Made by a program: the position numbers and the translations under genes. A DNA stretch of 64,000 nt from contig CAIIXF020000001.1 in the NCBI GenBank assembly GCA_903813345.2, forward strand, positions 3,224,001 through 3,288,000, read 5' to 3'. A model generated the notes under the pieces. It searched no databases. It was not told where the DNA came from and was given only the letters and a program-made list of their open reading frames with translations. This DNA is from Owenia fusiformis (Eukaryota). This document shows, piece after piece, positions 24,319-58,900 of the stretch (position 1 is its first letter; each line of letters starts with the position of its first letter).

Positions 24319-24953
24319 CTTTTAGGGGTGATCAAGAAACAACATTTGTGTGACACCTATGTACAGATGCATGTATACACACGGAGGCACCATGTCAGCA
24401 CAAAAGATTACAGTATAGCACTTTGGAAGATGCGATAAAATAAGGTTAACCCATGGTACATATCTGTTTTGAAACGAACTATTTTTTACAGTATTATATG
24501 AATGACATCTATATTTATTTTTAATATTCACAATCAAGCTTTCACAAAAGTGATTCATATTTGATCTAATTAATTCATCAAATGGTAATACTTCAAAGAA
24601 CAGCTAGAACCACAGCCTACATTGTCTATGTTCATGTCACTTTGAATGTTTTAACTCAAGACTGCATACACAGTTCATGTACTGTAAACTATACTATATA
24701 TGATGGTGTAAAGTAAATGTATATGGAGGTGCCATTCAGATCATCACTTCTGCTAAGGTACTAGTGACTTTTAACAATATTATAATATGATTTCTAGCTT
24801 ATATACAACACTGAATAAGTAATATCACATGTTTTACTATTGGATGAAGAATCCAATATTTCTCATCTGTTTTGATATTGTTTTTGAAAACAAGTGATCC
24901 ATGAAAATGTATTATTTACAAATGTTTCACTGCTCCATATAATGCATGCTTTG

Positions 24954-27900
24954 CTATAATCCAGGCATCACATAAGCAATATTGTCCAAGATTTCAGATA
25001 ATTGTTCTTCAGAACATCCATTGGTTTCATGCAGTTGTTTTGTGAGACAAGTGAGAGGTCCTAATGCAGATATTAAAGAGTCCAATAGTACAGAAAGACT
25101 GCCTTGTACTGCTATGAAACCCTGCAATGTGAATGATATGGTGTATGTAGTGTACAAATATTTAAGAGTCCAATAGTACAGAGAGACTGCCTTGTACTTC
25201 TATGAAACCCTGCAATGTGAATGATATGGTGTGTGTAGTGTACAGATATTAAAGAGTCCAATAGTACAGAGAGACTGCCTTGTACTTCTATGAAACCCTG
25301 CAATGTGAATGATATGGTGTGTGTAGTGTACAGATATTAAAGAGTCCAATAGTACAGAGAGACTGCCTTGTACTGCTATGAAACCCTGCAATGTGAATGA
25401 TATGGTGTGTGTAGTGTACAGATATTGAAGAGTCCAATAGTACAGAAAGACTGCCTTGTACTGCTATGAGACCCTGCAATGTGAATGATATGGTGTATGT
25501 AGCGTACAGATATTAAAGAGTCCAATAGTACAGAAAGACTGCCTTGTACTTCTATGAAACCCTGCAATGTGAATGATATGGTGTGTGTAGTGTACAGATA
25601 TTAAAGACTCCAATAGTACAGAGAGACTGCCTTGTACTGCTATGAGACCCTGCAATGTGAATGATATGGTGTATGTAGCGTACAGATATTAAAGAGTCCA
25701 ATAGTACAGAAAGACTGCCTTGTACTGCTATGAAACCCTGCAATGTGGATGATATGGTGTGTGTAGTGTACAGATATTAAAGACTCCAATAGTACAGAAA
25801 GACTGCCTTGTACTGCTATGAAACCCTGCAATGTGAATGATATGGTGTATGTAGTGTACAGATATTGAAGTGTCCAATAGTACAGAAAGACTGCCTTGTA
25901 CTGCTATGAAACCCTGCAATGTGAATGATATGGTGTATGTTGTCTACAGATATTAAAGAGTCCAATAGTACAGAAAGACTGCCTTGTACTGCTATGAAAC
26001 CCTGCAATGTGAATGATATGGTGTATGTAGTGTACATATATTAAAGAGTCCAATAGTACAGAAAGACTGCCTTGTACTGCTATGAAACCCTGCAATGTGA
26101 ATGATATGGTGTATGTTGTGTACAGATATTAAAGAGTCCAATAGTACAGAAAGACTGCCTTGTACTTCTATGAAACCCTGCAATGTGAATGATATGGTGT
26201 GTGTAGTGTACAGATATTAAAGACTCCAATAGTACAGAGAGACTGTCTTGTACTGCTATGAAACCCTGCAATGTGAATGATATGGTGTATGTAGTGTACA
26301 GATATTGAAGAGTCCAATAGTACAGAAAGACTGCCTTGTACTGCTATGAAACCCTGCAATGTGAATGACATGGTGTATGTAGTGTACAGATATTAAAGAG
26401 TCCAATAGTACAGAAAGACTGCCTTGTACTGCTATGAAACCCTGCAATGTGAATGATATGGTGTATGTAGTGTACAGATATTGAAGAGTCCAATAGTACA
26501 GAAAGACTGCCTTGTACTGCTATGAGACCCTGCAATGTGAATGATATGGTGTATGTAGTGTACAGATATTAAAGAGTCCAATAGTACAGAAAGACTGCCT
26601 TGTACTGCTATGAGACCCTGCAATGTGAATGATATGGTGTATGTAGTTGCAGATATTAAAGAGTCCAATAGTACAGAAAGACTGCCTTGTACTGCTATGA
26701 GACCCTGCAATGTGAATGATATGGTGTATGTAGTGTACAGATATTAAAGAGTCCAATAGTACAGAAAGACTGCCTTGTACTGCTATGAAACCCTGCAATG
26801 TGAATGATATGGTGTGTGTAGTGTACAGATATTAAAAAGTCCAATAATACAGAAAGACTGCCTTGTACTGCTATGAAACCCTGCAATGTGAATGATATGG
26901 TGTATGTAGTGTACAGATATTGAAGAGTCCAATAGTACAGAAAGACTGCCTTGTACTGCTATGAGACCCTGCAATGTGAATGATATGGTGTATGTAGTGT
27001 ACAGATATTAAAGAGTCCAATAGTACAGAGAGACTGCCTTGTACTTCTATGAAACCCTGCAATGTGAATGATATGGTGTATGTAGTGTACAGATATTAAA
27101 GAGTCCAATAATACAGAAAGACTGCCTTGTACTGCTATGAAACCCTGCAATGTGAATGATATGGTGTATGTAGTGTACAGATATTAAAGAGTCCAATAGT
27201 ACAGAGAGACTGCCTTGTACTGCTATGAAACCCTGCAATGTGAATGATATGGTGTGTGTAGTGTACAGATATTAAAGAGTCCAATAGTACAGAGAGACTG
27301 CCTTGTACTTCTATGAAACCCTGCAATGTGAATGATATGGTGTATGTAGTGTACAGATATTAAAGAGTCAAATAGTACAGAAAGACTGCCTTGTACTGCT
27401 ATGAGACCCTGCAATGTGAATGATATGGTGTATGTAGTGTACAGATATTAAAGAGTCCAATAGTACAGAAAGACTGCCTTGTGCTGCTATGAGACCCTGC
27501 AATGTGAATGATATGGTGTATGTAGTGTACAGATATGAAAGAGTCCAATAGTACAGAAAGACTGCCTTGTACTCCTATGAAACCCTGCAATGTGAATGAT
27601 ATGGTGTGTGTAGTGTACAGATATTAAAAAGTCCAATAATACAGAAAGACTGCCTTGTACTGCTATGAAACCCTGCAATGTGAATGATATGGTGTATGTA
27701 GTGTACAGATATTGAAGAGTCCAATAGTACAGAAAGACTGCCTTGTACTGCTATGAGACCCTGCAATGTGAATGATATGGTGTATGTAGTGTACAGATAT
27801 TAAAGAGTCCAATAGTACAGAGAGACTGCCTTGTACTTCTATGAAACCCTGCAATGTGAATGATATGGTGTATGTAGTGTACAGATATTAAAGAGTCCAA

Positions 27901-30900
27901 TAATACAGAAAGACTGCCTTGTACTGCTATGAAACCCTGCAATGTGAATGATATGGTGTATGTAGTGTACAGATATTAAAGAGTCCAATAGTACAGAGAG
28001 ACTGCCTTGTACTGCTATGAAACCCTGCAATGTGAATGATATGGTGTGTGTAGTGTACAGATATTAAAGAGTCCAATAGTACAGAGAGACTGCCTTGTAC
28101 TTCTATGAAACCCTGCAATGTGAATGATATGGTGTGTGTAGTGTACAGATATTAAAGAGTCCAATAGTACAGAGAGACTGCCTTGTACTGCTATGAAACC
28201 CTGCAATGTGAATGATATGGTGTATGTAGTGTACAGATATTAAAGAGTCCAATAGTACAGAAAGACTGCCTTGTACTGCTATGAGACCCTGCAATGTGAA
28301 TGATATGGTGTATGTAGTGTATAGGTTTACACAAAATATGCAACCCTTTAATTTCCGAAACACTCTCTCAGTTATGGTAGAATCTTCTTGATTTTTTTTG
28401 TGGAGAAAATGTGTTCATTGGAATAGTGAGTTCCATAGCATCAATAACTTTGAGACTTCAAGTTCTGTTGTGTGAAAGAGATGTTGTATGAGAGAGACTG
28501 TATTGTAATACTGTCTTTGAAGGCATATAATGTATACTGTATCCTCTTTACAAAATAAATAAATATTCTCACTAACTAACTTATATTTTAGTTATTTACA
28601 AATAATTTGAACTACATCCTTTCAGAAAAGCTGATTTTGAATAACATATGAATCTTATTAAGGTTAACCTCAGTCTTAACTATCTTAACTAATAAGTTTG
28701 GATACAATGTTGAAAGCATGTGTGTGGAATGTTATAGTGTAGCAGGCTTACCTTGTGGTCAATCAGCCTTGTACCAATCAGGGTCAGCGAGTCTCCGAGA
28801 AGTTTTAGATGGGCAGCGCCATCTACAGGGTTTGTACTGGTTGTCTGGAATGTATTATGATGCATTGTGAACAATCAAAATCTATGTACAATCAAAATTG
28901 AATTTCTAGATTTTCAACAAAATCTGCTATGTACCCGTACAATGGAATATAATGATTCACAGTTTGCAGTGTTAAAATTTATGGGGTGAATCAAATAAAA
29001 TGGAAAAAACTGAACTCATATATGTAGATTTTATTCTTCCACACCACTGACATATACATTGTGCATTAGAAAAATCACAGGTGTATACAGTCCCTAAACA
29101 TAATCAAATTAAACAGGCTTGACTGTATTATTGTGCAGTTGCCCCAAACACAATATTAAACATTCAAATATTGAAATAGTTTATGTCAAAATTACATTTA
29201 CAAAAGACATACCTTAGACATTGATGCACCCAGTTCTAGGGCTCCAGATACATTTGATGCCATACCCTTTATATGGCCTGTCATTTGTCGCTTAGTCATT
29301 GTACCGTATCTTTTCCCTTGTGCTTTGATGTACTGATTCTCATTGCTTTTCTTTACCACCTGCTGCATATTTTGTTCCATTGTCTTTTTACAAATCCTTT
29401 TAGCCTTTCTCTTCCAATTCTGAAATATTGATTGGGTTATAAAATCAGCCTTTCATTACCAATATTTTGGCAGGGGTTTCTCTAAGGACTCATTAATGTA
29501 AAATGTTATATAGGGTAAAAAATATGTACAACAAGCAATTGTTTTTTTTTATTTTGGTGATCCCTAAGTAATATCTCATGCAGTGGTATATTAGACAATT
29601 TTGTTTGGATCTTTAAAGGGTGACGCATATCGTTTAGCAAATCGAACGCTCGTTTCTGGTGTTGCTCACCATTTAGTATAAAAGGCTCGATCCCGGAATA
29701 ATACTCAAGGGTTCAAAGGCTCGAGGTCGTTGTGTCAACACCTCAAACTTTTATATAACATTGGTACAGTATAGATCGTCACATATTTATAAAAGGGAGA
29801 TTTTCATTTTGACAAATCAATTCCACATTTATGGGTGAAGTTTCAGGATCTTCTATTTGTGTATAATAAGGAAAATTGGCATCTAAAGGACGATTCTCGG
29901 TTTGGAGAACGAAGTTCATCAATCTAAATGAGCATTATCCCTGCTTCGGACAAATTTGATTTTTTTACATAATATAGATTCGAATGTCTTCTTTTGAATA
30001 GTCATAATTTAATTTGGGTAATATTTCTAGATTTTTCGCAAAAAAATATTAGCGCAGTACACTGATGAACTTCTTTCCCCAAATCGAGACGTTGTATTTT
30101 ATTGAATCGGTCTAATTGAGCGTTATCCCTGCTTCTGACCAATTTGTTATTTTTACATCTTGTAGATTTAAATGTCCTCTTTTGAATATTCATAGTTTAA
30201 TTTGGGTAATATTTTTATATTTTTCATGAAAAAAATTATTAGCCCAGGAGACTGTTCTCCAAACCGAGAATCGTCCTTTCCCCATAACGTAATAGCACAC
30301 AGCTTGGCATATAGAAATATCCTACAAATGAAACAAAGCAAGACAAACCTGTTTCTAATACAAGGATTTATATTGGCTGTTGTACATGTATTCTTTGAAC
30401 GCAATCACTCTTTGGATAACGTTTTCAAAATCATTATAAACGGATTACTTTATCTCAAAGACAATTTCAATAAACTGGATTTTACAGAACTCCCCTTATT
30501 TCTTAAAAATGGACTGATCCAGTTGATTCGCCTGGAGCCGCCATATTGTTTTCATACGGGATGCTAATCGGAACCCTTTAATTAACATTGCATTAGACTC
30601 AGTTATTAAAGTTGATTATGGATAAAATCAAAGAAAATTAAGAAAATCAAAATTTGGCACAACTCAGCAGATCAAACAAGATGACCTTTTTTATATTATT
30701 ATTAGCCATCAAATCAATACGTATTTTGTACTATTTTGTTTTTTCACATCAAAATGAAATTTCAAAGTCACATGTTACTTAACCCTTTCCCGACGTGAAT
30801 ATAAGAGAAAAATGTTGGCCCTGGTGACGGATATGTAAGAGCGGTTTTTAAGGGAAAACTGAAAATCACCTATGCCCCGGGACCTATACCCTGAATTTTA

Positions 30901-33900
30901 TTACTGAAATACAATTTTTAGTAAGGATTATCGCATTAGAACAACTTGTCAAAATTTGGTGTAAAAATACTGAATAGAACTTGAAATATTATCATTTAAT
31001 CAATGTATATAAATAAAAACAATGGTGCCAAAAGGAGCCTATCGTCCTGAAGGGTATTACATAATAGGGCTCCATATGGAGCCCATCGTTGTGAAAGGGT
31101 TAAAGGATCATGATTTTAATCGGAGGTTTCATAATATAGATTAAGTATTCCACTTTTTGGGATAATTACTCACCATTTTCTCTTTTTCTGGGAGGCCATG
31201 CCATCTTTCACCAAGCATTTTACTCGTTGTAGCAAAATCTAAATTAAAGAAATAATTTGAATGAATGACAATCACAAATAAAAATGGTGGCTACAACGAC
31301 ATGTCACCCCTTCTTGGTGGTGACAAGAAAACAGTTGTATTCCCAGAATAGCAATGATTTATTCTAATCCCAATGTTGCATACGATCAGCATTCTCAAAT
31401 CCATATGAAAGAGTATTTATATGAATACCGTATTATCTCTAATAGATGCACACACTCCACTGTGCGTTTATTGGAGAGAATCGGTAGTGCAGTTATCTTA
31501 CAACTGATTAGTGCTGCTATTTCAAATTGTCTTACTGATAATAGGGGGTCTTACCAAGGTCAGGTTTCTGTTCTTGAATACGACCTCTGATGGACTTACA
31601 GTACAACATATAAGCTGTAGGCCCTGAACGCCTCCTTCTCTTCTTCTGAAAATAAATACAATACACTTTAACAAAACGGTAAGTCTACTTTTTGTAGCTG
31701 ATGCTGTAAATTTTTTTAATAAACTTTTAATTTTTGAAAATGTAGTTTACACAACTTGAAGATTATCCAGAATAAAAGATTCTAGTTTCATGTAAATCAT
31801 CATACATGTGATATCATTAACTCATCATACATGTGATATTATTAACTCCTCATACATGTGATATCATTAACTCATCATACATGTGATATTATTAACTCCT
31901 CATACATGTGATATTATTAACTCCTCATACATGTGATATCATTAACTCATCATACATGTGATATTATTAACTCCTCATACATGTGATATTATTAACTCCT
32001 CATACATGTGATATTATTAACTCCTCATACATGTGATATTATTAACTCATCAAATATGTGATATTATTAACTCATCATACATGTGATATTATTAACTCCT
32101 CATACATGTGATATTATTAACTCATCAAATATGTGATATTATTAACTCATCAAATATGTGATTTTATTAACTCATCATACATGTGATATTATTAACTCAT
32201 CAAATATGTGATATTATTAACTCATCAAATATGTGATTTTATTAACTCATCATACATGTGATATTATTAACTCATCAAATATGTAATATTATTAACTCAT
32301 CATACATATGATATTATTAACTCATCATACAAATGATATTATTAACTCATCAAATATGTGATATTATTCATAATGTGTATACCTTTGATGCAGATTGGTG
32401 CTTCCCTTTGCGTTTCACAACTTCACCAGACTTCAGGCATTCAAATTGCTGTGGGGAATCCTGGGAAAGCATCTCCTCTGATGATCCTGGCAATAATTCC
32501 CCGCCATCTGGAGAGAGTAAAATAAAATCAGTCTCTGCTTGCAATGAAATCATAAAGTTTAAATATTCACAATTAATTTAATTAATGCATGAAAACTACA
32601 CTAGGAATGAATTAAAAGTAGAAAATATATTATGAATGATATGATGTTCCATTATAAGTGAATTAAAATTAGAAAATATTTATGATCATCTATTTGGAAG
32701 GAGTCAACATGCAATGTACAAATATGTATTTATCAAAACACAGATATGTTAATATGTACAGATTTTCTTTTTCAAAAACTATAAACACTTTATAATGAGA
32801 TAATATATAACACATTCCATCTGACTTTCAACTTTACCTTCCCCTATTTTCACTTTCTTATTCACTTTCGGAACTTTTTGAGTTTTTGCCTTCTTTGGTT
32901 TTGGTTCCTTTGGGAGTTTAAATGTTGGCTTAACCTCTGTTGATCCCCCTAGGAATGACCCCTCAGATTCATCTTCAATTGGCTCATTTTCAACAGTTTC
33001 TACTGTCGTTTCAATTGTTTCTAGAAGCAGATGCATGCAGGCACTAAATAAACACATGGAACAACTAACAGAACAATGATACACGTAGCAACTTAGCCTG
33101 GTAGCAATTTAGCAATTAAAACTAACAAAATATTATAATTAACATGTTAGTACAAACCAGTCTTAAAGTAGAACCATCATTTGTAAAGAAAATTGTTGGT
33201 ATTGCGATGAATTGCTCATAATGTTCTCTGTAATCTTCAAATAACTTACATTTGAAAGCGTCAAATGCTCCAGATTTTGAAAACAAGGTTTGCACCCATT
33301 TGATATTTTGAAAACAAGGCTTGCATCCACTTAAGATTTTGAAAAAATGCTTGGACCCGCATGAATCCATTTGCACAAACTTAAAAGTGAGAAAAATCAT
33401 GAAGGCTGGTTTATCTGGACCAATTTTGAATATTAATTTGTGTTTCTCTGAAATTTCCCATACTGCAGAAACCTTGTACACTACCCCATTAATTACTAAG
33501 CACAATATTCTATCTTCGACAAAGGGAACAGAACAGATATTTTCTTTTATATATACTTTAATTGATATGAACAAACTGAATAAAACAACTCGACTAGACA
33601 ATGGCAACTCCAGGCGCAGCAATTCTCACCATACGCACTAGTTATGCGCTTTTAAAGCAAATCAAGTCAAAAGAATCCCAGATACTGTCCCTTCAGAAAT
33701 GAGGATGGCAGTTTTCAATGTCCATTTTTGAATCATAAATTCGTGAAAACTAAGTAACTAAAATATTTATTATATATGAGATATCTTTATCCGGACAGAC
33801 ACATAGATGGATAAACATATGATGGACATTTTCTATATCCCATTTGAATCTCAGTTAGAGGAATAAAAATATGTTAAATTATTGAACTGTAACAAAGCAA

Positions 33901-36900
33901 ACATAATTTCCTAGTAAAACAAAAACAGCCAAATGTCAATTTTCTTTGAAATAATTACCCGATTCATCCTCATCATGCAACATAGATGGCAGCACTACCT
34001 CATGGACAGGTATTTCATCTTCGGGCTCATCAAAACATCGCTCTACTGTAATTGACTCCATTTCTGATGCTATACTCTTTTTCGGTTTCTTTGGAGCTTT
34101 TGGTTTCTTAACTTTAGGGGTTTTTGCAGTCTTAACTGGAGAGGGTGCCTCTGAGGCAAACACAGAACCTCCTAACTAAAATGATAGATGCTGATTATAC
34201 AGCGTGCCAAATATCAGGGGCCAAATATATACAAGGTGTCAAATAAATATGTTCACCTCCTTGATTTCAAGAGTATGAACATATTTGCATAAAAGTGCAT
34301 CTAGTTGAGCTAGTCAAATGAAACTTCTAGTAGAGTTGCTTCATGAAGCCAAGTTTTAAGGTGCTAAAGAACAATTCAAATATCATACAGACAAAAAAGA
34401 CAGAAACATTTTGTGGATGATAAAGTTGAGGGGAAACATATTTGTTTGACACCCTGTATATATCAATATGTTCTCTCCCCTTATCTTCAAAAGTATCCAT
34501 TATTGTAGAAGAGAAAACAAATATCAAAGCTGTACCAATTAGTATGCAATATTCTCAGTCATACAAAAATGATGTATAAATAGAATATTCTCAGTCATAC
34601 AAAAATGATGTATAAATAGAATATCCTAAGTCATACAAAAATGATGTTTAAAGAGAATATTCTCAGTCATACAAAAATGATGTTTAAATAGAATATTCTC
34701 AGTCATACAAAAATGATGTATAAATAGAATATCCTAAGTCATACAAAAATGATGTTTAAAGAGAATATTCTCAGTCATACAAAAATGATGTTTAAATAGA
34801 ATATTCTCAGTAATACAAAAATGATGTTTAAATAGAATATTCTCAGTCATACAAAAATGATGTTTAAATATAATATTCTCAGTCATATAAAAGTGATATA
34901 TAAATAGAATATCCTAAGTCATACAAAAATGATGTTTAAATAGAATATTTTCATTCATACAAAAATGATGTTTATATAGAATATTCTCAGTCATACAAAA
35001 ATGATGTTTAAATAGAATATTCTCAGTCATAAAAAATGATGTTTAAATAGAATATTTTCAGTCATACAAAAATGATGTTTAAATAGAATATTCTCAGTCA
35101 TACAAAAATGATGTTTAATAGAATATTCCCAGTCATACAAAAATGATGTTTAAATAGAATATTCTCAGTCATACAAAAATGATGTTTAAATAGAATATTC
35201 TCAGTCATACAAAAATGATGTTTAAATAGAATATTTTCATTCATACAAAAATGATGTTTAAATAGAATATTCTCAGTCATACAAAAATGATGTTTAATAG
35301 AATATATTCTCAGTCATACAAAAATGATGTTTAAATAGAATATTTTCATTCATACAAAAATGATGTTTATTAAATAGAATATTCTCAGTCATACAAAAAT
35401 GATGTTTAATAGAATATTCTCAGTCATACAAAAATGATGTATAAATAGAATATTCTCAGTCATACAAAAATGATATATGAATAGAATATTCTCAGTCATA
35501 CAAAAATGATGTTTAAATAGAATATTCTCAGTCATACAAAAATGATATATAAATTGAATATTCTCAGTCATACAAAAATGATGTTTAAATAGAATATTCT
35601 CAGTCATACAAAAATGATATATAAATTGAATATTCTCAGTCATACAAAAATGATGTTTAAATAGAATATTCTCAGGCATACAAAAATGATATATAAATTG
35701 AATATTCTCAGTCATACAAAAATGATATACAAATAGAATATGTACTCACTTCCAGTTCTGATTCTTCAGATTCAAACTTTATTTCCTTTTTGGGAATTTT
35801 AGGTGTTTTGGGAATTTTTGGTTTAGCTGGCTTCTTTGCAGATTTTGGTGGGGGAGTAGCTACCACAAGTGGGTCATCCATTGGTTCAATAGCCATACCA
35901 GGGTTAGTTTCAACTTCAGCTGTTACATCCTTCTTCTTTTTGGGAGTTTTCTTGGGTGCCTTTTTGGGTTTCTGCTCAGATGAGGCAACGACTGTCTCAA
36001 CACCAGGGTCAGATCCCAAATGAATCTTTAACTTTAGCGCACTTGTATTATCACTTTGTGTTTCAACATCTTGTGGCTTTAATGAATAAAGTAAATGTAT
36101 GAAAAATCAATGCATGTACATTTAAATGTAGTTAGTTAATAATGGAGTACAGTATTTTGCAAGTAACGATTTGAGAATATTGACAAAGATATAATCTGTT
36201 GACTTTTAGATTAAAAATATGAAATCGCATAAACTGACTATCTAGAGTCAAGTAAATGTGTAAACTGTAGTGCTATGTCACATAGGTTAGCTGACAAATG
36301 TTAGGAAATGATACTCTGACATCTCTTATCAATAGTGACTCATAAACAAAGTCAACGAAAGTAAATACCTGCATCACTTCTTCAAGTTGAACAGATTTAC
36401 TCTTCTTTGTGGTAGACTTGGTTGCAGCATCTGTGTCCAATGTAGCTACACTGGGGGCAGGGGAGGTAAGTAGGAGTTTAATCATGCTCTCATCATCCTT
36501 ACCAGGTGAAGCCTCTTGTACCACTGGAGCACTTTTAGATTTCTTGGGACTCTTGGCAGTTACAGGGGAATCTTTTGGACTTCCCATACTAGCTAAAGGA
36601 GATGTTGGCTCTGATTTCATGGACTTTTTCTATGGATATAAAGAAAGTGAAGTTGGTTAACGCATTAGTTTTTACATGAGTGCTACTATTTTTGAATTAA
36701 TGATTATGCATCTCCTCATAATTTGTATGTACAGTGTATTGATCACAAATTGACACTGATCTCACTTAAAACTTACAGATGAGGATGAGATATGGCAACA
36801 ATCCACATGATACTTACTTTTGATGCATTCACATTTGTTTTGTGGTCCTCTAACTGCTCCAATTCTTCTGCATCCGCCATAGCATCTTCTTCCATTTCTC

Positions 36901-38132
36901 GTAGCTTTGATGATTTCTTCCTTATCCTCCCAGTGGATCGAGATACAACTGGTTGCGTGTCTGCAAGAATGACAGATGTTGTGATTGTTCGATACAATTT
37001 ATGCAAACGACCAGAAAACATATCCAAAATTGTTCAATGGTAGATATTTAATTATGGACAAAATTCTTAAAATCACGAACCAACTTTTATAAAGCTTTTG
37101 ACACCTGTTTTTTAAGATGTCTGGAGTTGGTAAGAAACTGGTTAATTTGACTTGATCTTTGAACTGGCTACTCAAGAAGTAAAGTCCTGGGAAAATCTTA
37201 TATCCTACATCCCTGTTAAGTTCCATTTATTAATATGGATGGCTTCTTTCATCTTCTGTCAAAATCAATGATTCTGCACTCCCAGCTTATCCTGGGTGCT
37301 TCACCAAATGAATGTTGAGTGATTACAGATTTGTCTGTGTTTATGTTCTTTTATTCTAGCTGATCCCTATTATTCTGCCTGTTAGCCTATATCCTGTATA
37401 TTTCTTGGTTAGTATTTTGAAGAATTTTATAATTATTAAAAATAAATTTCTCTATCAAGTGGGTGCAAAATACACTTGAACCTCAATACATCTTTTTTTA
37501 ATTGTCTGTTCAATTTGAAGAATCAAAAAAATGGCAAACTTGATATTGAACTTATCTTTTTTATTTCTGTTGAGAATATTTGAAATCCTCTTGCAACAGC
37601 CTAATCTGGCAGATTACATTGTACCCCTGTTCTGTTTTCCTCTATACCCACCACCGATTAACCCCTATCCCATACTCCAATATTTTTCCATCACTGCTAT
37701 ACACTGTAATCCCCTTGTGATGAAAAGCACTTGAAGATACTACTCTTACATTTACTGAATTGATGTAACTGTATATCTCTCATCATAAAATAACAAATTA
37801 AGAGGGTGGTTTCCTAAAGTCGATGGATGAGTGTGCATCATTTCCGCGCATCTCACTTTTGGTTTCAGTTTCGATGCTGTAATTTGATTATTGACTGTAT
37901 ATTACTTGAACAAATAAACTGCTGCACATGATCTAAATTGTATATTACAGTTGAATGAAAATAATTCAAAGATGAGAATCAATGATCACATACATTTAAA
38001 TGGTGATCCATTGGCAGCATCATCCTCATCTTCATCAACTGCATCCTTCGTCTTCTTAGGTTTTGTTAAATAATCTTCAGCATCACCATCATCCTTGCTT
38101 GATGCCTTTCTCTTCCTTGGTTTGCTAGCCAT
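24954..38132 (-). CDS. HMGXB4: HMG box-containing protein 4-like
   Basis: Exons: 38132-37994, 36960-36818, 36629-36369, 36076-35750, 34175-33959, 33020-32838, ~32537(or 32507)-32383, 31645-31555 and 31238-31174 (HMG box: [12 protein letters not shown]...[26 protein letters not shown]), 29419-29213, 28844-28752 ([15 protein letters not shown]), 25121-24954 ([21 protein letters not shown]...[11 protein letters not shown]). The C-terminus matches the HMGXB4 end as I recall it (...LDNIAYIMPGL). Confidence 0.9.
25067..28323. repeat. 88-bp minisatellite, about 37 copies; unit is the intron 3' end plus the first ~55 nt of the HMGXB4 last exon
   Basis: Minus-strand unit TACACTACATACACCATATCATTCACATTGCAG|GGTTTCATAGCAGTACAAGGCAGTCTTTCTGTACTATTGGACTCTTTAATATCTG. 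Exon-start positions run from 28288 to 25121, a span of 36x88 minus 1. Confidence 0.97.
29617..30577. mobile_element. Kolobok-like non-autonomous element candidate
   Basis: TTAA|AGGGT...ACCCT|TTAA ends. Internal inverted GACGATTCTCGGTTTGGAGAAC (29891 and 30254) and an internal direct repeat. TIR match is weak. Confidence 0.45.
30783..31099. mobile_element. piggyBac-like MITE
   Basis: TTAA|CCCTTTCCCGACG...CGTTGTGAAAGGG|TTAA: TTAA TSD with CCC/GGG termini. Confidence 0.75.
31798..32370. repeat. 25-bp minisatellite, about 23 copies, intronic and abutting the donor at 32382
   Basis: Unit CATACATGTGATATTATTAACTC(A/C)T. Confidence 0.95.
34547..35741. repeat. 36-bp minisatellite, about 33 copies, intronic and abutting the donor at 35749
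   Basis: Unit AGAATATTCTCAGTCATACAAAAATGATGTTTAAAT. Confidence 0.95.
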
Positions 38133-43200: not shown

Positions 43201-46200
43201 TTTTACAGGATATTTCAAGTGTATGTATGCACTAATTAACGGTAGAGTACCTGACAGTATAGAGAACTCCCCAACTCCCCCTACACCTATGGCAGCTAGT
43301 GTATATGAACTCTTGGTGAAACCTCTAGCAGTTGTCAACTATAAACATGTTACAGATAATACAAAGTAGGTCAATATATTACATGTACACTGAAATGGTA
43401 TCCCTAAAGTTTCGAATATGAATGGTATATGTATGTATGAATTGATGAATTCAACCACTCGTATCTTAATATCTTAAGCTGTGAACACCTATCCAGCCCC
43501 TTCCTACTTCACCCCAGCCTATGGGGCTTTCATTATAGTCATATCACTATTATTTCACTATCATTTTTTTTATTTGATATTCCAGACAGACGATTTTGGA
43601 GGCTTTATGTAGAGAAGTGTTCTGTGTTGAGTACTCAATACAAGCCAACAATTTTATCATACCAGCCTTGGTATATGGGAATTCCAAATTCCCATTTGCC
43701 GATATGTTGCATGCATTATTACCCAACGAGAAGACCCAACATGTCAAAGATGACGATTATAAGAGAATGATATTGACTGTGCCACAGACCCCTTGGTTAC
43801 TTGGAGTTCTATTGAAGTTATCAGAAAAATATTTAGGTAAGGTACAATTTATAACTTTATTTGAATCAGAGCCATCTGATACCATTTGTAAATACCTGGT
43901 AAGTAGTAAGTAAATGATGTTATTTGTGGGAAACTAAAGTTATGTTTATGTAGTCCAAGAATTAATTTTCAGAACTTTGTATTTGGTCAGGAAGTGAAAA
44001 CCATTTTTAAAGTTGGTAGAGAGGGGAGACAAATGAACTGTGACAGAGATATGGCATTGTACAATATTTGCTAAGCCCCAGAGATAAGGCTTAACACAGT
44101 AATGTTTCATACATCATTCTTGTTCTTGATATGTTTACAGGCTCAGTGTCGCAACAAGATCTCCTCTGTTACCTAGAAATTTTACAAGCATTGATACCAT
44201 GTCTTCCGACCCCCAAAGATCTAGGGACGTTACAACAAGAAGACTCTGATTCTGAGGATGATGATGCCATGTGTATTGAGGTTTGTATAGTTTAGAAAAT
44301 ACAGATGTTATTGTGTACACTGCTGTACATACAGTCTGTACTTATGCATATGGGACATGGATTGAACTTAATCGTGAAAATGTAAGATGACTACTGGCCA
44401 ATCCTTGTCAAAATAGAGGACATCTATTGCATTTTAAATTGAATTAAAAGAATCAGTTTAATACAGTACACTGTATGTATTTTACATTTAGATTGAACCT
44501 TACCTGAGATTCAATTTAAGTCATGTGCATGGTTATATGTTTATCAGTTTTACTGACTATCAAATCATGCACAATTTTTAGTACTGTACATGTACATATA
44601 TTTGGACATATTTTACATGCATGTATTTTTCCTTTCAGGTTGACAGTAAGCTAACAGAGCTTAAAGATGATTGCATTACAAAGATAGACGCACCCTCCCA
44701 CATAGCATGTATCATATCCACAGTACAAGACAATCCAGATGAGGCGACCATAACTGCAGTCTGCACACTTTGCCATGCTCTCATGTCAGATCAAAAAATT
44801 AGTGTGCATAAATCGGGGTAATTGAAAAACCTAATAGATCACGCCACCTATTGGTATGATGTGTTTCTTACTGTTTCATGGCTGAAATTGGATTACTGTA
44901 TTGAACTAATGGTGATGGTCTTAATACGTGTATATGCTACTTTATGGTTTAAGTTAGAATTAGATTTTAAATATAAGACCTCAGAAAGATTGATAATACT
45001 GTATCTTCATGAAGAAATACTTAAATTCTTGAATTTTTTTTTGAACATTAATATATCTTTTTGTTTAAAAGTATAATATTTGTGTGATATTATGTGTATT
45101 AAAAATTGGTGCATATTTTGTTTTATTAGATTACTGAATTCACTAGCTTACAATAGTCAATTGGTGCAATACATGTGGAAATGCTGTACTGCTGTATCTA
45201 GTCTCTCAATTACAAAGTAAGTATGTTATACAATACATCATGAAATTACTGCCTTTTAGGGTAAAACATTTTGAGTTAAGATAATTAAATATTTTGATTT
45301 TCTCCAACAGTTTAAAAGTACTATTTTCCCACTTACACCAAACTGATATGTTTTCATGACACAACTTCCTAGATTCACTTATAATTTTTCAGGATTTTGA
45401 CACAAAGACAAACTGAGTACCAAATGATTACCCTATATTATATATACTAGATGTATTACAGTTTGATTCATATGTATTTTTTCAGAAAACGGGTCCCTTT
45501 ACTGCAGCAGCTATCACGAGGGTTAGAAATATCACGGGAGAATCTTGATCAAATCGTCTCACTTTTAGCCACCTTTTGTTCTCTATTCAGTCACTCAATT
45601 ACTACCCTCCATGATTCTGAATTCCACGGTGATGAAGGTTAGTTTAAGAAATGTCATTTGTTCCGCATAGTCAAATATAATGTTTGTAATTATCCCACCG
45701 AACGAAGTTCGAGGGGGATATAGAAAAGCTGTCCGTCCATCCGTCCGTTCGTCCGTTCGTGGGTCCGGGCAATAACTCAAATACCGGTTGACAGATTTCA
45801 TTCAAATTTTATAGGCTTATGCCTTATGGGTGTAGGACCTCTGCTCGAAAAGGAATTTTCAATATGGCCGCTTAATTCAAAATGGCGGCCATTTTTCTGA
45901 GAAAATGTAATCTTTAATAACTCAAATACTAGTGGATGGATTTGGTTCAAATTTTATATACTGTTGCCTTGGTACAAAGCAGCCTTGCTAAAGAAGACAT
46001 TTTCAAGATGGCTACCAAATTTCAAAATGGCGGGCATTTTTCGTAAAAAAACTGTTATCTTTGATAACTCAAAGACCATTGAATGGATTTGGTTCAAATT
46101 TTAGATGCTGATGCCTATGGACATAGGAGCTCTGCTCGAGAAAGGATTTTCAAGATGGCAGCTAAATTTCAAAATGGCGGCCATTTTTCGTAAAAAAATG

Positions 46201-49200
46201 TTATCTTTGATAACTCAAATACCATCGAATGGATTTGGTTTAAATTTTAGATGCTGATGCCTAGGGACATAGGAGCTCTGCTCAAAAAAGGATTTTCAAG
46301 ATGGCAGCTAAATTTCAAAATGGCGGCCATTTTTCATAAAAAAACATTATCTTTGATAGCTCAATTACCCTTGAATGGATTTGGTTCAAATTTTACATGA
46401 TGATGCCAAGGGACATAGGAGCTCTGCTCGAGAAGGGATTTTCAAGGTGGTGGCTAAATTTCAAAATGGCCGCCATTTTTCATAAAAGAACGTAACCTTT
46501 GATAACTCAAATACCAGTTGACGGATTTCGTTTAAATTCTATATGCTGATGCCTAGAGACAAAGAAGTTCTGCTCAAAAATAAATATTCAAGATGGCCAC
46601 TGAATTTCAAAATGGCCGCCATTTTTCCATAAAAAACGTAATTAATGATAACTCAAATACTAGTGGATGGATTTGGTTCCAATTTTATATGCTGATGTTT
46701 AGGGAAAAAGGAGATCTGCTTCAGAAGAAATTTCAAAGGCGATAGCTGAATTTCAAAATGGCTGCCATTTTTCATTAAAAAAGTAATCTTTGATAACCCA
46801 GATACCATTGGAAGGACATTCTCTGCTAAAGAAGAAATCTAAAGATGACAACTGAATTTCAAAATGACAACCATGTTTCATAAAGACATAATCTTTGATA
46901 ATTCAAATACCAGTGGATGAATTTGGCTCAATTTTTTTTATCAAAACATGTTTTGTTCGGTGGGATTTGCCACTCCGTTGAGTTGCTGTTTTTCTAGTAT
47001 TAGTATTTTTATTTGTTGTATGATGTGTATTCATTTTTTTAATTCAATTGTTGATTTATCAGGGGCTAGTTTCGTATCTCTCGTGTTACTTGTAATTATG
47101 ATCTAAATGCCAAATGAAATATGCCATTTAAATATTGTTTGTTACTTTCAACAGGAGGTTCACATATGCCATTTAAAGTATCAGAACTTGTACCTATGAG
47201 TTTGGAATTAAGAAATGCCTGCCTTGGTATAATAGAACTGGCCCATCCTGACACCAAACCAACACTTAGGGAGGATTATAGAAAAGCATTCCAGAGTGTA
47301 GGAGTCAACCTGCTTGACACTCTGTCCAAAGAACAGCTAGAGTATAAGAGAAAGACTTGGGCTCATCTTTTCAAGGTATAAATAGAGTTACTAGACTAAA
47401 GTATATTTAACATAAATATGTCAGCACCATAAGTGGTAGCATATTGTTATATAGTCTCCAACTTTTTATATATCATGTTTGGCAGTTGGTGTTTTGCTGT
47501 TGGCAATCTGCATCTGTAACAAATGGCAGGTGGTGATATATTGCATGTTAATGCCTTGTTTCTTATATCAACACAACCATTTCAACTTTGAAGACTGACT
47601 TTGATTTGATATTTGTACATAACAGCACGGTTATTATTTATTGCGCTACTCTGCCTTCATATATTTAGTCACAATTTCAATTTAAAGGTAAATGAAAATG
47701 ATTCAAGAAAATGAAGTGTTGAGTATTTTGTGTTTGATGATATTGTATTTGTAATCAATACGTATAAATAAGCGTATTATATTGGAGTATATCTCCAGTT
47801 ATTCCCAGCTATCTATGTATTGAAGCAACTGCATTTAAAAGACATTTAATCTCATTTAGGTAATAAGCCATCTAGTGAAGCAGTTACATGCGAGGGACAC
47901 TAGGAGACCTTTCTGTTCCTTTGGGCATTGGTTGGCCCCTCAAGTGAACATACAGGCTGACAAGGTAGACTTACTCCAACAATCACATGCAACATTATTC
48001 ACAATATTATGTTGTCAGTTTCAAATAAATATACTTCTTTAAAGTGTAGTGTTAGATAATGCATAGTATGATACAGACGCATTCTTCTGCATTGCTGTAT
48101 TAATGATTAGAAAATATTTTCTTTTTCCTTTCCAGCCATCCCAGATTTTCACATCTCTAGAGCAGTTTGTGAGGAAACCATTTGGTGCAAAAAGTATTCT
48201 GAACACAGATAGATATGGTAAGTGATTTGACTGAATTGATATTAGATCATAGACCTATCCATTGATCCAAGCAAAAACACTTAGGCAAATTGGCCTACAT
48301 ATGACATTGGTTTTGAGCAATGGGGTTTATAGTGTAATTCGACACACTCAATTAAAAAAAGCCACCATTTTTCATAAAAAGTGTAATCTTTGATAACTCA
48401 AATACTAGTGGTTAGATTTGGTTCAGATTTTATATGTTATTTTTGATTTGAACCTAAATAATCTTTAATCTTTGATAACTCAAATACTACTGGTCAGATT
48501 TGGTTCAAATTTTATATCTAATTTTTTATTTGAACCTAAATTTTATCATTTCTGAGTAGGAGTTTCCGATACCTACATGTTTATGGGTCCCCTACAGGGA
48601 ACTAACGTCAATTTCAATCGAGGTCTTTTGGTCAAATCCAGGCTTGGCTGAAAGAGTAATTAGCATTTATGCTTTCTTATGATAATTTGGCTAGTGAGTG
48701 GCTATTTTGAAAATTGTGACCAAGGCTGTTCAATGGGATTTGCTACTTTTTGGTGTTGCTGTTATCTTGTTTGATGTAATAGCCTTTTGACTGCCAAGTT
48801 TTTGGAAACTGTTTGTGGGGACATTGCTCAGGAAAGCTGCTTGCTTTTTCTTTCCTATGAATAATTTGAATAATCATATATTACATATTGAAATCTGCTA
48901 ATCATTGAGTTGCCATTTTTCTTTTTTCTAATTAGCATTCCATTTGAAATTCTGATATTGATTTGTCCTAAGCTTCTTAGTTCAGGGACCTATATAAGAT
49001 AACAACAAGGTTTTAAAAAACATATTTACAATTTATACATAGAACATCATTAAATACACTTGAGCATAATAAACATTTAAAAATATACAAAAATTGACTG
49101 ATGCTGTTTTAGTTATTGTCTCTATCTAGCATCTTTTCTTGAAAGTACTACATTGTTCCATATAGCAAGGTTGATACAATAGGCATATATTCTCCGTCAC

Positions 49201-55948: not shown

Positions 55949-58900
55949 CTAACACATGTCTCCCTTGCTATGACAAACATTGCTTTTAGCAGGAATAACT
56001 GTCCCCTTCACGGTTGTCCTATGCAGGACTCTGAGTCCTACTTCACTTACTGGAAACTGAGTCTGTTCACTAGCCTCATGTCCCAAAGCTAAGTTGTCGG
56101 ATATAATAAAGTCTCCAGGCTCCCACTGAAATAAAAGGTTATAGTTATTATAAAATGTGATAGAATGATTTAATAATTTCTTTCAAATATCCAAGATGTA
56201 ATATCAAATCATCTCAGTCAAAGTCTTCAGATTTAATAAGGTGAAATACAAAGTAAAATAAAATGATAAACATCAAGAGAGAAATGTAAATGATTGTGTC
56301 CAAGAAGATGTTCATCTGTTCATGTTGATAGACCGTACTCAGTACATATTTGAATCATATGTGGAAAATTAGTGGAAAAGTCCATAGATTTGCATGTTAA
56401 TCATGTTTATGTGTGAGTGGTATGAAACTTACCTTGCGTGAATGAGGTTAAACTCACCTTGTGTGAATGGTGTTAAACTCACCTTGTGTGAATGGTATTA
56501 AACTCACCCTGTGTGACGGTGTTAAATTCAACTTGTGTCAACAGTATCAAACTCACCTTGCTTGAATGGTGTTAAACTCGCCTTGTGTGAATGGTGTTTA
56601 ACTCACCTTGTGTGAGATGGTGTTAAACTTACCTTGTGTGAATGGTGTTTAACATAATGTCTGAGATGGTGTTAAATTACCTTATGTGAATGGTGTAAAA
56701 CTCACCTTGTGTGAATTGTGTTAAACTCACTTTGCGGAATAGTGTTAAACTCCCCTTGTGTGAATGGTGTAAAACTCACCTTGCGGAATAGTGTTAAACT
56801 CCCCTTGTGTGAATGGTGTTAAACTCACCTTGCGTGAATGATGTTAAACTCACCTTGTGTGAATGGTGTTAAACTCACCTTGTGTGAATGGTATTAAACT
56901 CAACCTGTGTGATGCTGTTAAATTCAACTTGTGTCAACAGTATCAAACTCACCTTGCTTGAATGGTGTTAAAATCACCTTGTGTGAATGGTGTTAAACTC
57001 GCCTTGTGTGAATGGTGTTAAACTCACCTTGTGTGAATGGTGTTTAACTCACCTTGTGTGAATGGTGTTAAATTACCTTGTGTGAATGGTGTATAACTCA
57101 CCTGGCATAATAATGTTAAACTCACCTTGTGAGAATACTGTGTTTCTGGTTTGTTGCAAATTCCTTCTTTATTTCCTTCAGAATCTCTAAGGTCTCTTGA
57201 AAGTTTGTAATCTTTTGTTTTTCTGTACCATAACCTTGTGTGAATGATGTTAAACTCACCTTGCGGAATAGTGTTAAACTCCCCTTGTGTGAATGGTGTT
57301 AAACTCACCTTGTGTGAATGGTGTTTAACTCACCTTGTGTGAATGGTATAAAACTCACCTTGTGTGAATGGTGTAAAACTCACCTTGTGTGAATGGTGTT
57401 AAACTCACCTTGCGGAATAATGTTAAACTCACCTTGTGTGAATACTGTAAGTGTTTCTGGTTTGTTGCAAATTCCTTCTTTATTTCCTTCAGAATCTCTA
57501 AGGTCTCTTGAAAGTTTGTAATCTTTTGTTTTTCTGTACCATAATCCCAAATAAACGCATCAGTCATTCCCAAATGGACACACATTGTCTACAAAATAAG
57601 TTATTCATTGAGGAATTGAAAAGTGATGATGATAGATATAAGTACATATATTGACCAGCCCATATAGTTTCTGTTAGGAGTGGTTAGTTTAGTCTAGGTA
57701 ACTTTGATGGTTATTTTGATATAAATTGAACACATGCCCATTTACGATTAAACACATACCATAATGAGGGCTTGGTTAAATATGACAGGAACACTGTACA
57801 ACAATCAATATGGTAAAGATTACTAACAGTATTAAGGCTACAATAATTGAATCTGACGTTTCGGTTTGGAGATGTACATGTAAGTGGAGTGGATGAAGCT
57901 TTATATTCCCACTTCCTCAAAGGGCTAATTATGTACATAAAACACATATTTCTGGAACAGTACAATACAGTAGAATCACAAACATTTTCCATAAATGACT
58001 GATGAACCATAATTTTTGCACAGTTTGCAGTGGACTCAGAGAAGTGCTTAATATTATATTTGTTTCCCGCAAGCTTAGTTCACACCAACGGCACTTTGAT
58101 AGCGCTTTAAAGCAGATATGCATGCCGCTTTAAAGCACTATCAAAGCGCTGTTTGTGTGAACTTAGCTTTAGCTCATATAAGAATGTACTATTTTTACCA
58201 GTTCTCCAGTTGATGGGTGTGAATATACCAGGGGGTGATACAATTGCCCTCTCCTGTCGCTGACCATCCACAGTCTGTCCCATCTTGCAAACTGTTCTTT
58301 GGACAGATTTTTCAAAAGCTCATTAAGGGGAATGAACACTGAAAATAAAAAATACAAGGCATATAACATACTTTAGGCTTTAGGCCAATATAAAGCTGGC
58401 AACACAACTGCAGTAACCTTGCAATACTGAGTGAGATGGGCAGACTACACAGGGAGATATGCTGAGTACTAAAATAGTACTCATGGCATTTTAGCACTAA
58501 TTGAGTACTCATTTCAGTAAATATTTGTACTAAATGAGCACTCATGACATGAGTACTGATTTATTGCATGTTTTAGTACTAAATGAGTACTCATGTGATG
58601 AGTGATAAAATAGCGCTAATTTCATTGATTTTTCATTACTCAATGAGCGCTCATGATATGATCACTAATTAATTGCATGTTTTAGTACTAAATGAGTACT
58701 GATATGATGAGTGATAAAATAGCGCTAATTCCATTGATTTTTCATTACTCAATGAGCGCTCATATTATGAGTACTAATATATTGCTCATGTTTCACGAGT
58801 GATAGAATAGTACTCAAAGATTAAAATGTTGATAGATTTTTTTTAATTGATGAAGTAAAATATAGGATACCTAATAAATTACATTTTGATTATTCGAAAA

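Follow-up and report, generated by a model that had tools for sequence, protein, structure and literature searches.

In a stretch of 64,000 nucleotides (nt) from Owenia fusiformis (GenBank assembly GCA_903813345.2, contig CAIIXF020000001.1, positions 3,224,001 to 3,288,000; hereafter the window, whose own numbering is used throughout), the last intron/exon boundary of an HMGXB4 (HMG box-containing protein 4) gene on the minus strand is embedded in a tandem array of about 37 copies of an 88-bp unit, each of which carries an intact 3' splice site. In three RNA sequencing (RNA-seq) runs the most distal acceptor, at 25121, is used exclusively, and in steady-state RNA the other 36 copies behave as silent decoys. 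The array is likely to be a minisatellite of the kind termed 'mirage', with silent decoys, which is carried as a neutral or slightly costly passenger and does not regulate isoforms.

Acceptor use was read from three raw stranded RNA-seq runs (X21, X22 and X23), accompanied by a raw DNA run (X24) that bears the same species label, and about 6-12% of each run was read. The reads were mapped to positions 28201-29500, a stretch that holds exons 10 and 11, the unique part of the last intron, the first unit of the array and 33 nt of the second unit. A read spliced to any unit maps on the first unit, and the sequence that follows the 55-nt exon-like block reveals the unit from which it came: decoy splicing would leave the block followed by TACACTAC..., while authentic splicing to 25121 leaves it followed by CATTAGGACCTCTCACTTGTCTCACAAAAC. 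All RNA reads were in a single orientation. The joint between the donor at 28752 and a unit acceptor (28287/8 to 28751/2) was crossed by 14, 16 and 18 reads (48 in total), another 14 short-overhang loose ends bore exon-11 sequence, and the joint of intron 10 (28844 to 29213), which served as control, was crossed by 13, 17 and 33 reads. Where the 55-nt block ends, at 28234, 28/28, 19/20 and 23/25 reads turned into loose ends (70/73 overall). Their consensus (agreement 0.99), once reverse-complemented, reads CATTAGGACCTCTCACTTGTCTCACAAAAC, a sequence found only after the acceptor at 25121.

Coverage of the 33 array-specific bases (28201-28233) was zero in all three RNA runs. The bin 28201-28244 (44 positions) had mean depths of 7, 4.91 and 6.25, and its 11 exon-like bases, at 28x, 20x and 25x, account for the whole of that depth, hence the array-specific bases are uncovered. 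At 28285, where the coding strand has C in the first unit and T in the last unit, T was read in 24/24 informative reads (12/12, 6/6 and 6/6), and a variant at 28243, present in 2/28, 0/20 and 9/25 reads, is a synonymous TTA>CTA change outside the array's own variants. Up to 121 nt of a read from within the array could match the mapped region, and about 75 matching nt were enough for reads to map; even rare array-containing RNA should therefore show, because reads from any of the 36 decoy units would pile up on the sole full unit. Alternative 3' splice sites generating protein isoforms were not found in these runs, in which only the 25121 continuation was seen. An earlier note on this DNA, written from the letters alone, had called the repeated 3' splice sites functional, which the RNA reads do not bear out for any upstream copy. 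Its proposal that copy number tunes the ratio of full-length to alternative-tail protein fared no better, with 0 bases on the array continuation against 70 reads into the unique exon, and no alternative-tail protein was found. It had also allowed that all transcripts might use only the 25121 acceptor, the repeat being neutral, and this is what the RNA showed, in animals whose carriage of the array is not shown.

Sequence comparison confirms the gene as an HMGXB4 orthologue, as both the HMG box and the conserved C-terminus are present. Compared with the protein collection, the 55 amino acids of the last exon match 541 proteins at E <= 0.01 among 597 candidates. The top match is P0001, an unnamed protein product of Owenia fusiformis of 672 amino acids (100% identical), followed by HMGXB4 of a termite (insect), a brachiopod, oysters (molluscs) and vertebrates at 67-76% identity. 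Splicing of 12 minus-strand GT-AG exons (38132..24954) reproduces 672/672 residues of P0001, which has an HMG box at residues 474-534 (PF00505, E = 8e-13) and the conserved HMGXB4 C-terminal pattern ...AAHLKLLG(D/E)SL...LDNIAY.MPGL. PF13775, which is N-terminal in vertebrate HMGXB4 proteins, is not listed for P0001, and a Pfam search with single exons gave sub-threshold chance matches only. In the spliced model, exons 1-10 lie on the minus strand at 38132-37994, 36960-36818, 36629-36369, 36076-35750, 34175-33959, 33020-32838, 32507-32383, 31645-31555, 31238-31174 and 29419-29213. Exon 11 (28752-28844, 93 nt), placed by the model and by the RNA joints, ends with ...LIDHK in phase 0 at the donor AAG/GTAAGC, and the unique part of intron 11 (28322-28751) runs from the donor GT (28751-28750) to the first unit. 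The coding part of the terminal exon 12 (24954-25121), supported by the protein matches and the model, comprises 55 codons and the stop TAG at 24956-24954 and encodes the conserved C-terminus. The first candidate poly(A) signals from a motif search, ATTAAA and AATAAA, lie at 24519-24530 on the same strand, 431 and 437 nt past the stop, while neither motif was found inside the array on the minus strand. With 3630 nt, the last intron is the longest of the gene and contains 36 array units; the pyrimidine content of its acceptor is an unremarkable 0.59, as compared to 0.55-0.77 for the other acceptors of the gene.

The array itself is a single block on the minus strand at 25067-28321 (period 88, 37.0 copies, 96% matches, 0% indels, score 5992), as delimited by Tandem Repeats Finder and unit-by-unit alignment. 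A unit joins 33 nt from the end of the intron (…CATTCACATTGCAG, closing with TTGCAG) to the 55 nt that open exon 12, and every copy of this 55-nt block reproduces the start of the last coding exon exactly or almost exactly. TGCAG/GGT occurs 37 times on the minus strand, with first exon-like bases from 28288 down to 25121, and the longer TTGCAG/GGT is intact in 37/37 units; successive acceptors are 88 nt apart throughout, bar one spacing of 87 nt. In the unit alignment, the exon-like part of the 36 upstream decoys starts at 28288, 28200 and so on to 25209. The authentic 3' splice site region (25122-25154, …CATTCACATTGCAG, with its AG at 25123-25122) was located by the exon model that reproduces P0001 and by the RNA loose ends. 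The decoys resemble it closely from -33 to +55 (n = 36), two of them matching it exactly, while continuation into ALGPLTCLT...YVMPGL and the stop is reached solely from the copy at 25121.

Pairs of units differ on average at 3.4/88 positions, nearly all of them recurrent substitutions, and the array holds 18 distinct variants of the 55-nt block and one 1-nt indel. A higher-order pattern is present, in which units 4-8 reappear as units 13-17; at a shift of 9 units 5/28 pairs are identical, compared with 0-2 at other shifts, and units 22, 27 and 37 have one and the same 88-nt sequence. Unit 36 (25155-25242), directly upstream of the true acceptor, has two substitutions private to that unit, namely T>A in column 80 and C>T in column 86, some 42 and 36 nt upstream of the true 3' splice site. 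One of the two converts TTA to a TAA stop, so that the tail predicted from acceptor 36 has only 15 amino acids.

These features bear on the extremely unlikely explanation that the array is an assembly artefact, be it a false expansion or a wrong copy number. The recurrent substitutions, the 18 variants, the one indel and the higher-order pattern have the look of a real array and are unlike consensus errors. Furthermore, the Owenia fusiformis genome is described as built from PacBio reads with an N50 of 25-30 kb, far longer than the 3.3 kb of the array, which applies only if the window comes from that assembly (PMC9977687). On the other side, the array lacks independent DNA confirmation, and the sampled-word shares, 0.70 and 0.52 in the 'DNA?' runs and 0.31 in the 'RNA?' runs, are compatible with the presence or the absence of array words, non-array words making up 0.70 of the distinct words but 0.38 of the positions.

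The tails predicted from the 36 upstream acceptors have 61 (32 acceptors), 90 (two), 42 (one) and 15 (one) amino acids, and the predicted 61-residue tail would have a His-rich, frame-shifted end that includes VHY(I/T)HHIIHIAG.... No candidates for a protein with an alternative tail were found in the protein collection, either with the array reading frame at near lengths or with the tail alone in longer proteins, which is weak evidence. It has to be considered that upstream acceptors are used appreciably and that their products, which would stop prematurely and gain as much as about 3.3 kb of 3' untranslated region (UTR), are degraded. The predicted decoy products would stop 15-90 codons past the junction with a very long 3' UTR still to follow, and long 3' UTRs can trigger decay. 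However, array-specific coverage was zero in three runs although the reads of any decoy unit should collect there, and decay usually lowers such isoforms several-fold, not to nothing, which makes this explanation very improbable. The earlier note had foreseen the His-rich tail, correctly for the 32/36 upstream acceptors that give 61 amino acids. Its description of the locus was likewise sound with respect to the roughly 37 copies of a unit made of 33 intronic and 55 exonic nt (Tandem Repeats Finder, alignment), the donor at 28751 (last exon base 28752), the identity of the gene as HMGXB4 (672/672 residues of P0001 and the identities of the last exon) and the dependence of the conserved C-terminus on the distal acceptor (exon model, P0001).

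Under the mirage reading, an 88-bp segment across the boundary between the last intron and exon of this annelid's HMGXB4 orthologue would have been duplicated in tandem and then grown to about 37 copies, probably via unequal exchange, the outcome being 36 near-perfect decoy 3' splice sites within the last intron. In the mature mRNA, exon 11 would be joined from its donor at 28752 to the most distal acceptor only, and the conserved C-terminus would be kept. The choice would be made by exon context, that is by terminal-exon definition, which we infer to be the likeliest way in which the last site is selected. Whatever tells the true site apart must lie outside the interval from -33 to +55, over which the decoys match it. 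A decoy is followed by 55 nt and then by another intron-like stretch, which offers no usable poly(A) signal and no credible donor, the best candidates being TCT/GTACAC, GCA/GTACAA or similar. The last copy alone can be defined as a terminal exon, because the other 113 nt of the coding exon, together with the 3' UTR and poly(A) signal, adjoin this copy and no other. This difference in context agrees with what the concept of terminal-exon definition predicts. The earlier note had offered terminal-exon definition coupled to polyadenylation as one possibility, a putative mechanism with which the exclusive use of 25121 in RNA agrees.

Alternatively, the last acceptor could win through private upstream context, the unit 36 substitutions lying in the expected branch-point zone, and not through exon definition. 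The two changes are exclusive to that unit, and the 33-nt intron part of a unit has one motif resembling the branch-point motif yUnAy (TTCAC at -9), with the branch point probably located in the preceding unit. One change, however, destroys rather than creates the TTAAT match that is seen in other units, and the array must have grown while the distal site already worked. We judge this alternative quite improbable.

Three further candidates for the silence of the decoys were tried and rejected. Masking of the decoys by RNA structure was dismissed, as three 150-nt contexts fold no better than their shuffles (z = +0.56, +0.89 and +0.93), and in the same contexts the last copy is no different from internal copies in local folding. 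Re-splicing once a decoy has first been used was discarded, as the junction AAG/GGTTTC regenerates no GT donor and the sole in-register AG/G(C) pair, CAAG/GCAGTC, comes without a GT and without a pyrimidine tract. Decoys acting as in-frame 54-nt mini-exons were set aside, as the donor TCT/GTACAC is poor, the intron would be 34 nt and no back-joints are listed.

Several points weigh against exclusive use of the distal acceptor by exon context. Simple rules of proximity and first-AG scanning would predict that the nearest acceptor wins, and the private substitutions of unit 36 could matter in place of exon context. Decoy use followed by rapid decay may be compatible with steady-state RNA, a small share of each run was read, and the stage and tissue of the RNA are unspecified. 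Above all, there is no evidence that the RNA-sampled animals carry the array: RNA depth was 0 over 28333-28684 of the unique intron in all three runs, and with no pre-mRNA signal carriage is invisible. The sampled animals are not the assembled one, because all RNA runs differ from the window at 29311, where T>G is fixed (43/43, 23/23 and 37/37, or 103/103 reads), and the three alleles of X23 at 28797 (G, A and C) suggest that the animals were pooled or are highly polymorphic. In the DNA run X24 even the exons are no more than 90-95% alike (likeness bands with 0, 3, 13 and 0 reads); this run has a depth of 2-4x on exons and 0 reads on the unit, so that the copy number stands without independent DNA support; at most this hints that the divergent X24 lineage lacks a similar array. 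The array may thus be variable or lineage-specific.

These points feed the explanation that the RNA data are uninformative, the array being a length-variable or private allele absent from the RNA animals, while carriers might use upstream acceptors, with copy number setting the isoform ratio. Besides the invisible carriage, the single-nucleotide differences fixed in the RNA runs and the empty unit in X24, the length instability described for mirages is in its favor (PMC3087553). On the other hand, the public protein model P0001 uses the distal acceptor, and the C-terminus is strongly conserved across animals, so that a mis-splicing allele would be costly. The Owenia fusiformis genome paper describes an annotation based on RNA-seq, which is relevant only if P0001 or the window comes from it (PMC9977687), and the exon-adjacent site dominates in the mirages and donor-side cases as described (PMC3087553; PMC3902484; PMC1557585). 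We therefore regard an array-free RNA sample concealing upstream acceptor use as unlikely.

It is also conceivable that the decoys slow or switch the removal of the last intron in a way that depends on copy number, in which case the array would not be neutral and its length would tune HMGXB4 output between individuals, but we hold this to be highly unlikely. In one version the decoys would take up 3'-splice-site factors and hold back the terminal splice, and in another their use at certain stages, in certain tissues or under stress would yield HMGXB4 without the conserved C-terminus. The three bulk RNA runs, read to about 6-12%, do not contradict such a role.

Among known systems, tandem alternative acceptors such as NAGNAG have both sites used and are spaced by a few nucleotides. 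As in NAGNAG, several AGs compete for one donor in the HMGXB4 array, but unlike in NAGNAG, use of a second site was looked for and not seen. The array is best filed with the mirages, as an acceptor-side mirror image, at a terminal exon, of donor-side cases in human genes. It is a head-to-tail array of minisatellite-sized units (88 bp x 37.0, 96% matches), its unit holds intron, exon and splice signal, and the last unit is the authentic boundary; regular splicing is kept and the repeats are silent (70/73 reads), the carriage of the array by the RNA animals not being shown. Mirages are described from amphioxus as minisatellite-like tandem duplications which span intron/exon boundaries, for example in Adh3 and in the globin genes BflGb6 and BflGb9 (PMC3087553), with troponin C and PGBD5 as further cases (PMC3902484). 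In BflGb6, the 3' end of an intron along with the 5' portion of the following exon is duplicated in 3-6 units of 150-160 bp, RT-PCR (reverse transcription PCR) indicated undisturbed splicing, and length instability is reported (PMC3087553). The HMGXB4 array shares with these mirages the reiteration of splice signals in a boundary-spanning unit and the undisturbed splicing, and with BflGb6 the same layout. It differs from the mirages as described there in that it is found in an annelid, has 37 copies as compared to 3-6 for BflGb6, and lies at the boundary of a terminal coding exon, where use of a decoy would need no downstream donor (PMC3087553; PMC3902484).

In human genes, boundary minisatellites are described on the donor side: in the 37-bp variable number tandem repeat of F7 IVS7 only the exon-adjacent copy of the repeated donor is used, and in IFI6 (6-16; 25 pseudo-sites), CBS IVS13, LMNB2 and PDGF intron 4 the exon-adjacent site is solely or mainly used (PMC1557585). 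Like the F7, IFI6 and CBS repeats, the HMGXB4 monomer spans an exon/intron boundary and repeats identical splice sites in the intron. The repeated sites of the human cases are 5' splice sites, of which the most upstream prevails, and this is attributed to 5'-to-3' scanning (PMC1557585). In HMGXB4 they are 3' splice sites, of which the most downstream prevails. Such scanning cannot explain the HMGXB4 array, but both fit the rule that the site adjoining the real exon wins. In IFI6 and CBS one or two pseudo-sites are used as well (PMC1557585), whereas none was seen in use in the HMGXB4 array. The HMGXB4 array has more copies than any mirage or boundary case described in the accessible parts of PMC3087553, PMC3902484 and PMC1557585. 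A literature search of limited reach found boundary minisatellites from amphioxus and human only, which does not exclude their existence elsewhere.

Two other introns of the gene contain minus-strand minisatellites. The array in intron 4 (34548-35741, 36 bp x 33.1, 92% matches) starts 8 nt past the exon-4 donor (35750/35749), and its unit holds CTGAGAATATTC, which is similar to the donor region GTGAGTACATATTC; judged by its letters, it might be an old donor-side boundary duplication that has lost its GT, or the resemblance might be due to chance. The array in intron 7 (31793-32368, 25 bp x 23, 92% matches) begins about 15 nt past the exon-7 donor (32383/32382) and has no exon sequence in it. 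Hence, 3/11 HMGXB4 introns, namely introns 4, 7 and 11, have large minisatellites hard against an exon boundary. Outside the gene, arrays of 146 bp x 7.1 (45772-46810) and 25 bp x 41 (56410-57443) are present, and the window is minisatellite-rich overall and low in G+C (0.28-0.39).

As a feature of the gene the array is ordinary, the repeat being intronic and the protein product normal; it is of value as a natural experiment on 3' splice-site choice. No decoy was seen in use although all of them are nearer to the donor and transcribed earlier, which runs against a simple proximity or first-AG expectation. Silent proximal decoys favor selection by exon context, here terminal-exon definition. 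The HMGXB4 array is a counterpart to the human donor-side case of F7, which has been cited in support of scanning, and it would extend the mirages beyond lancelets.

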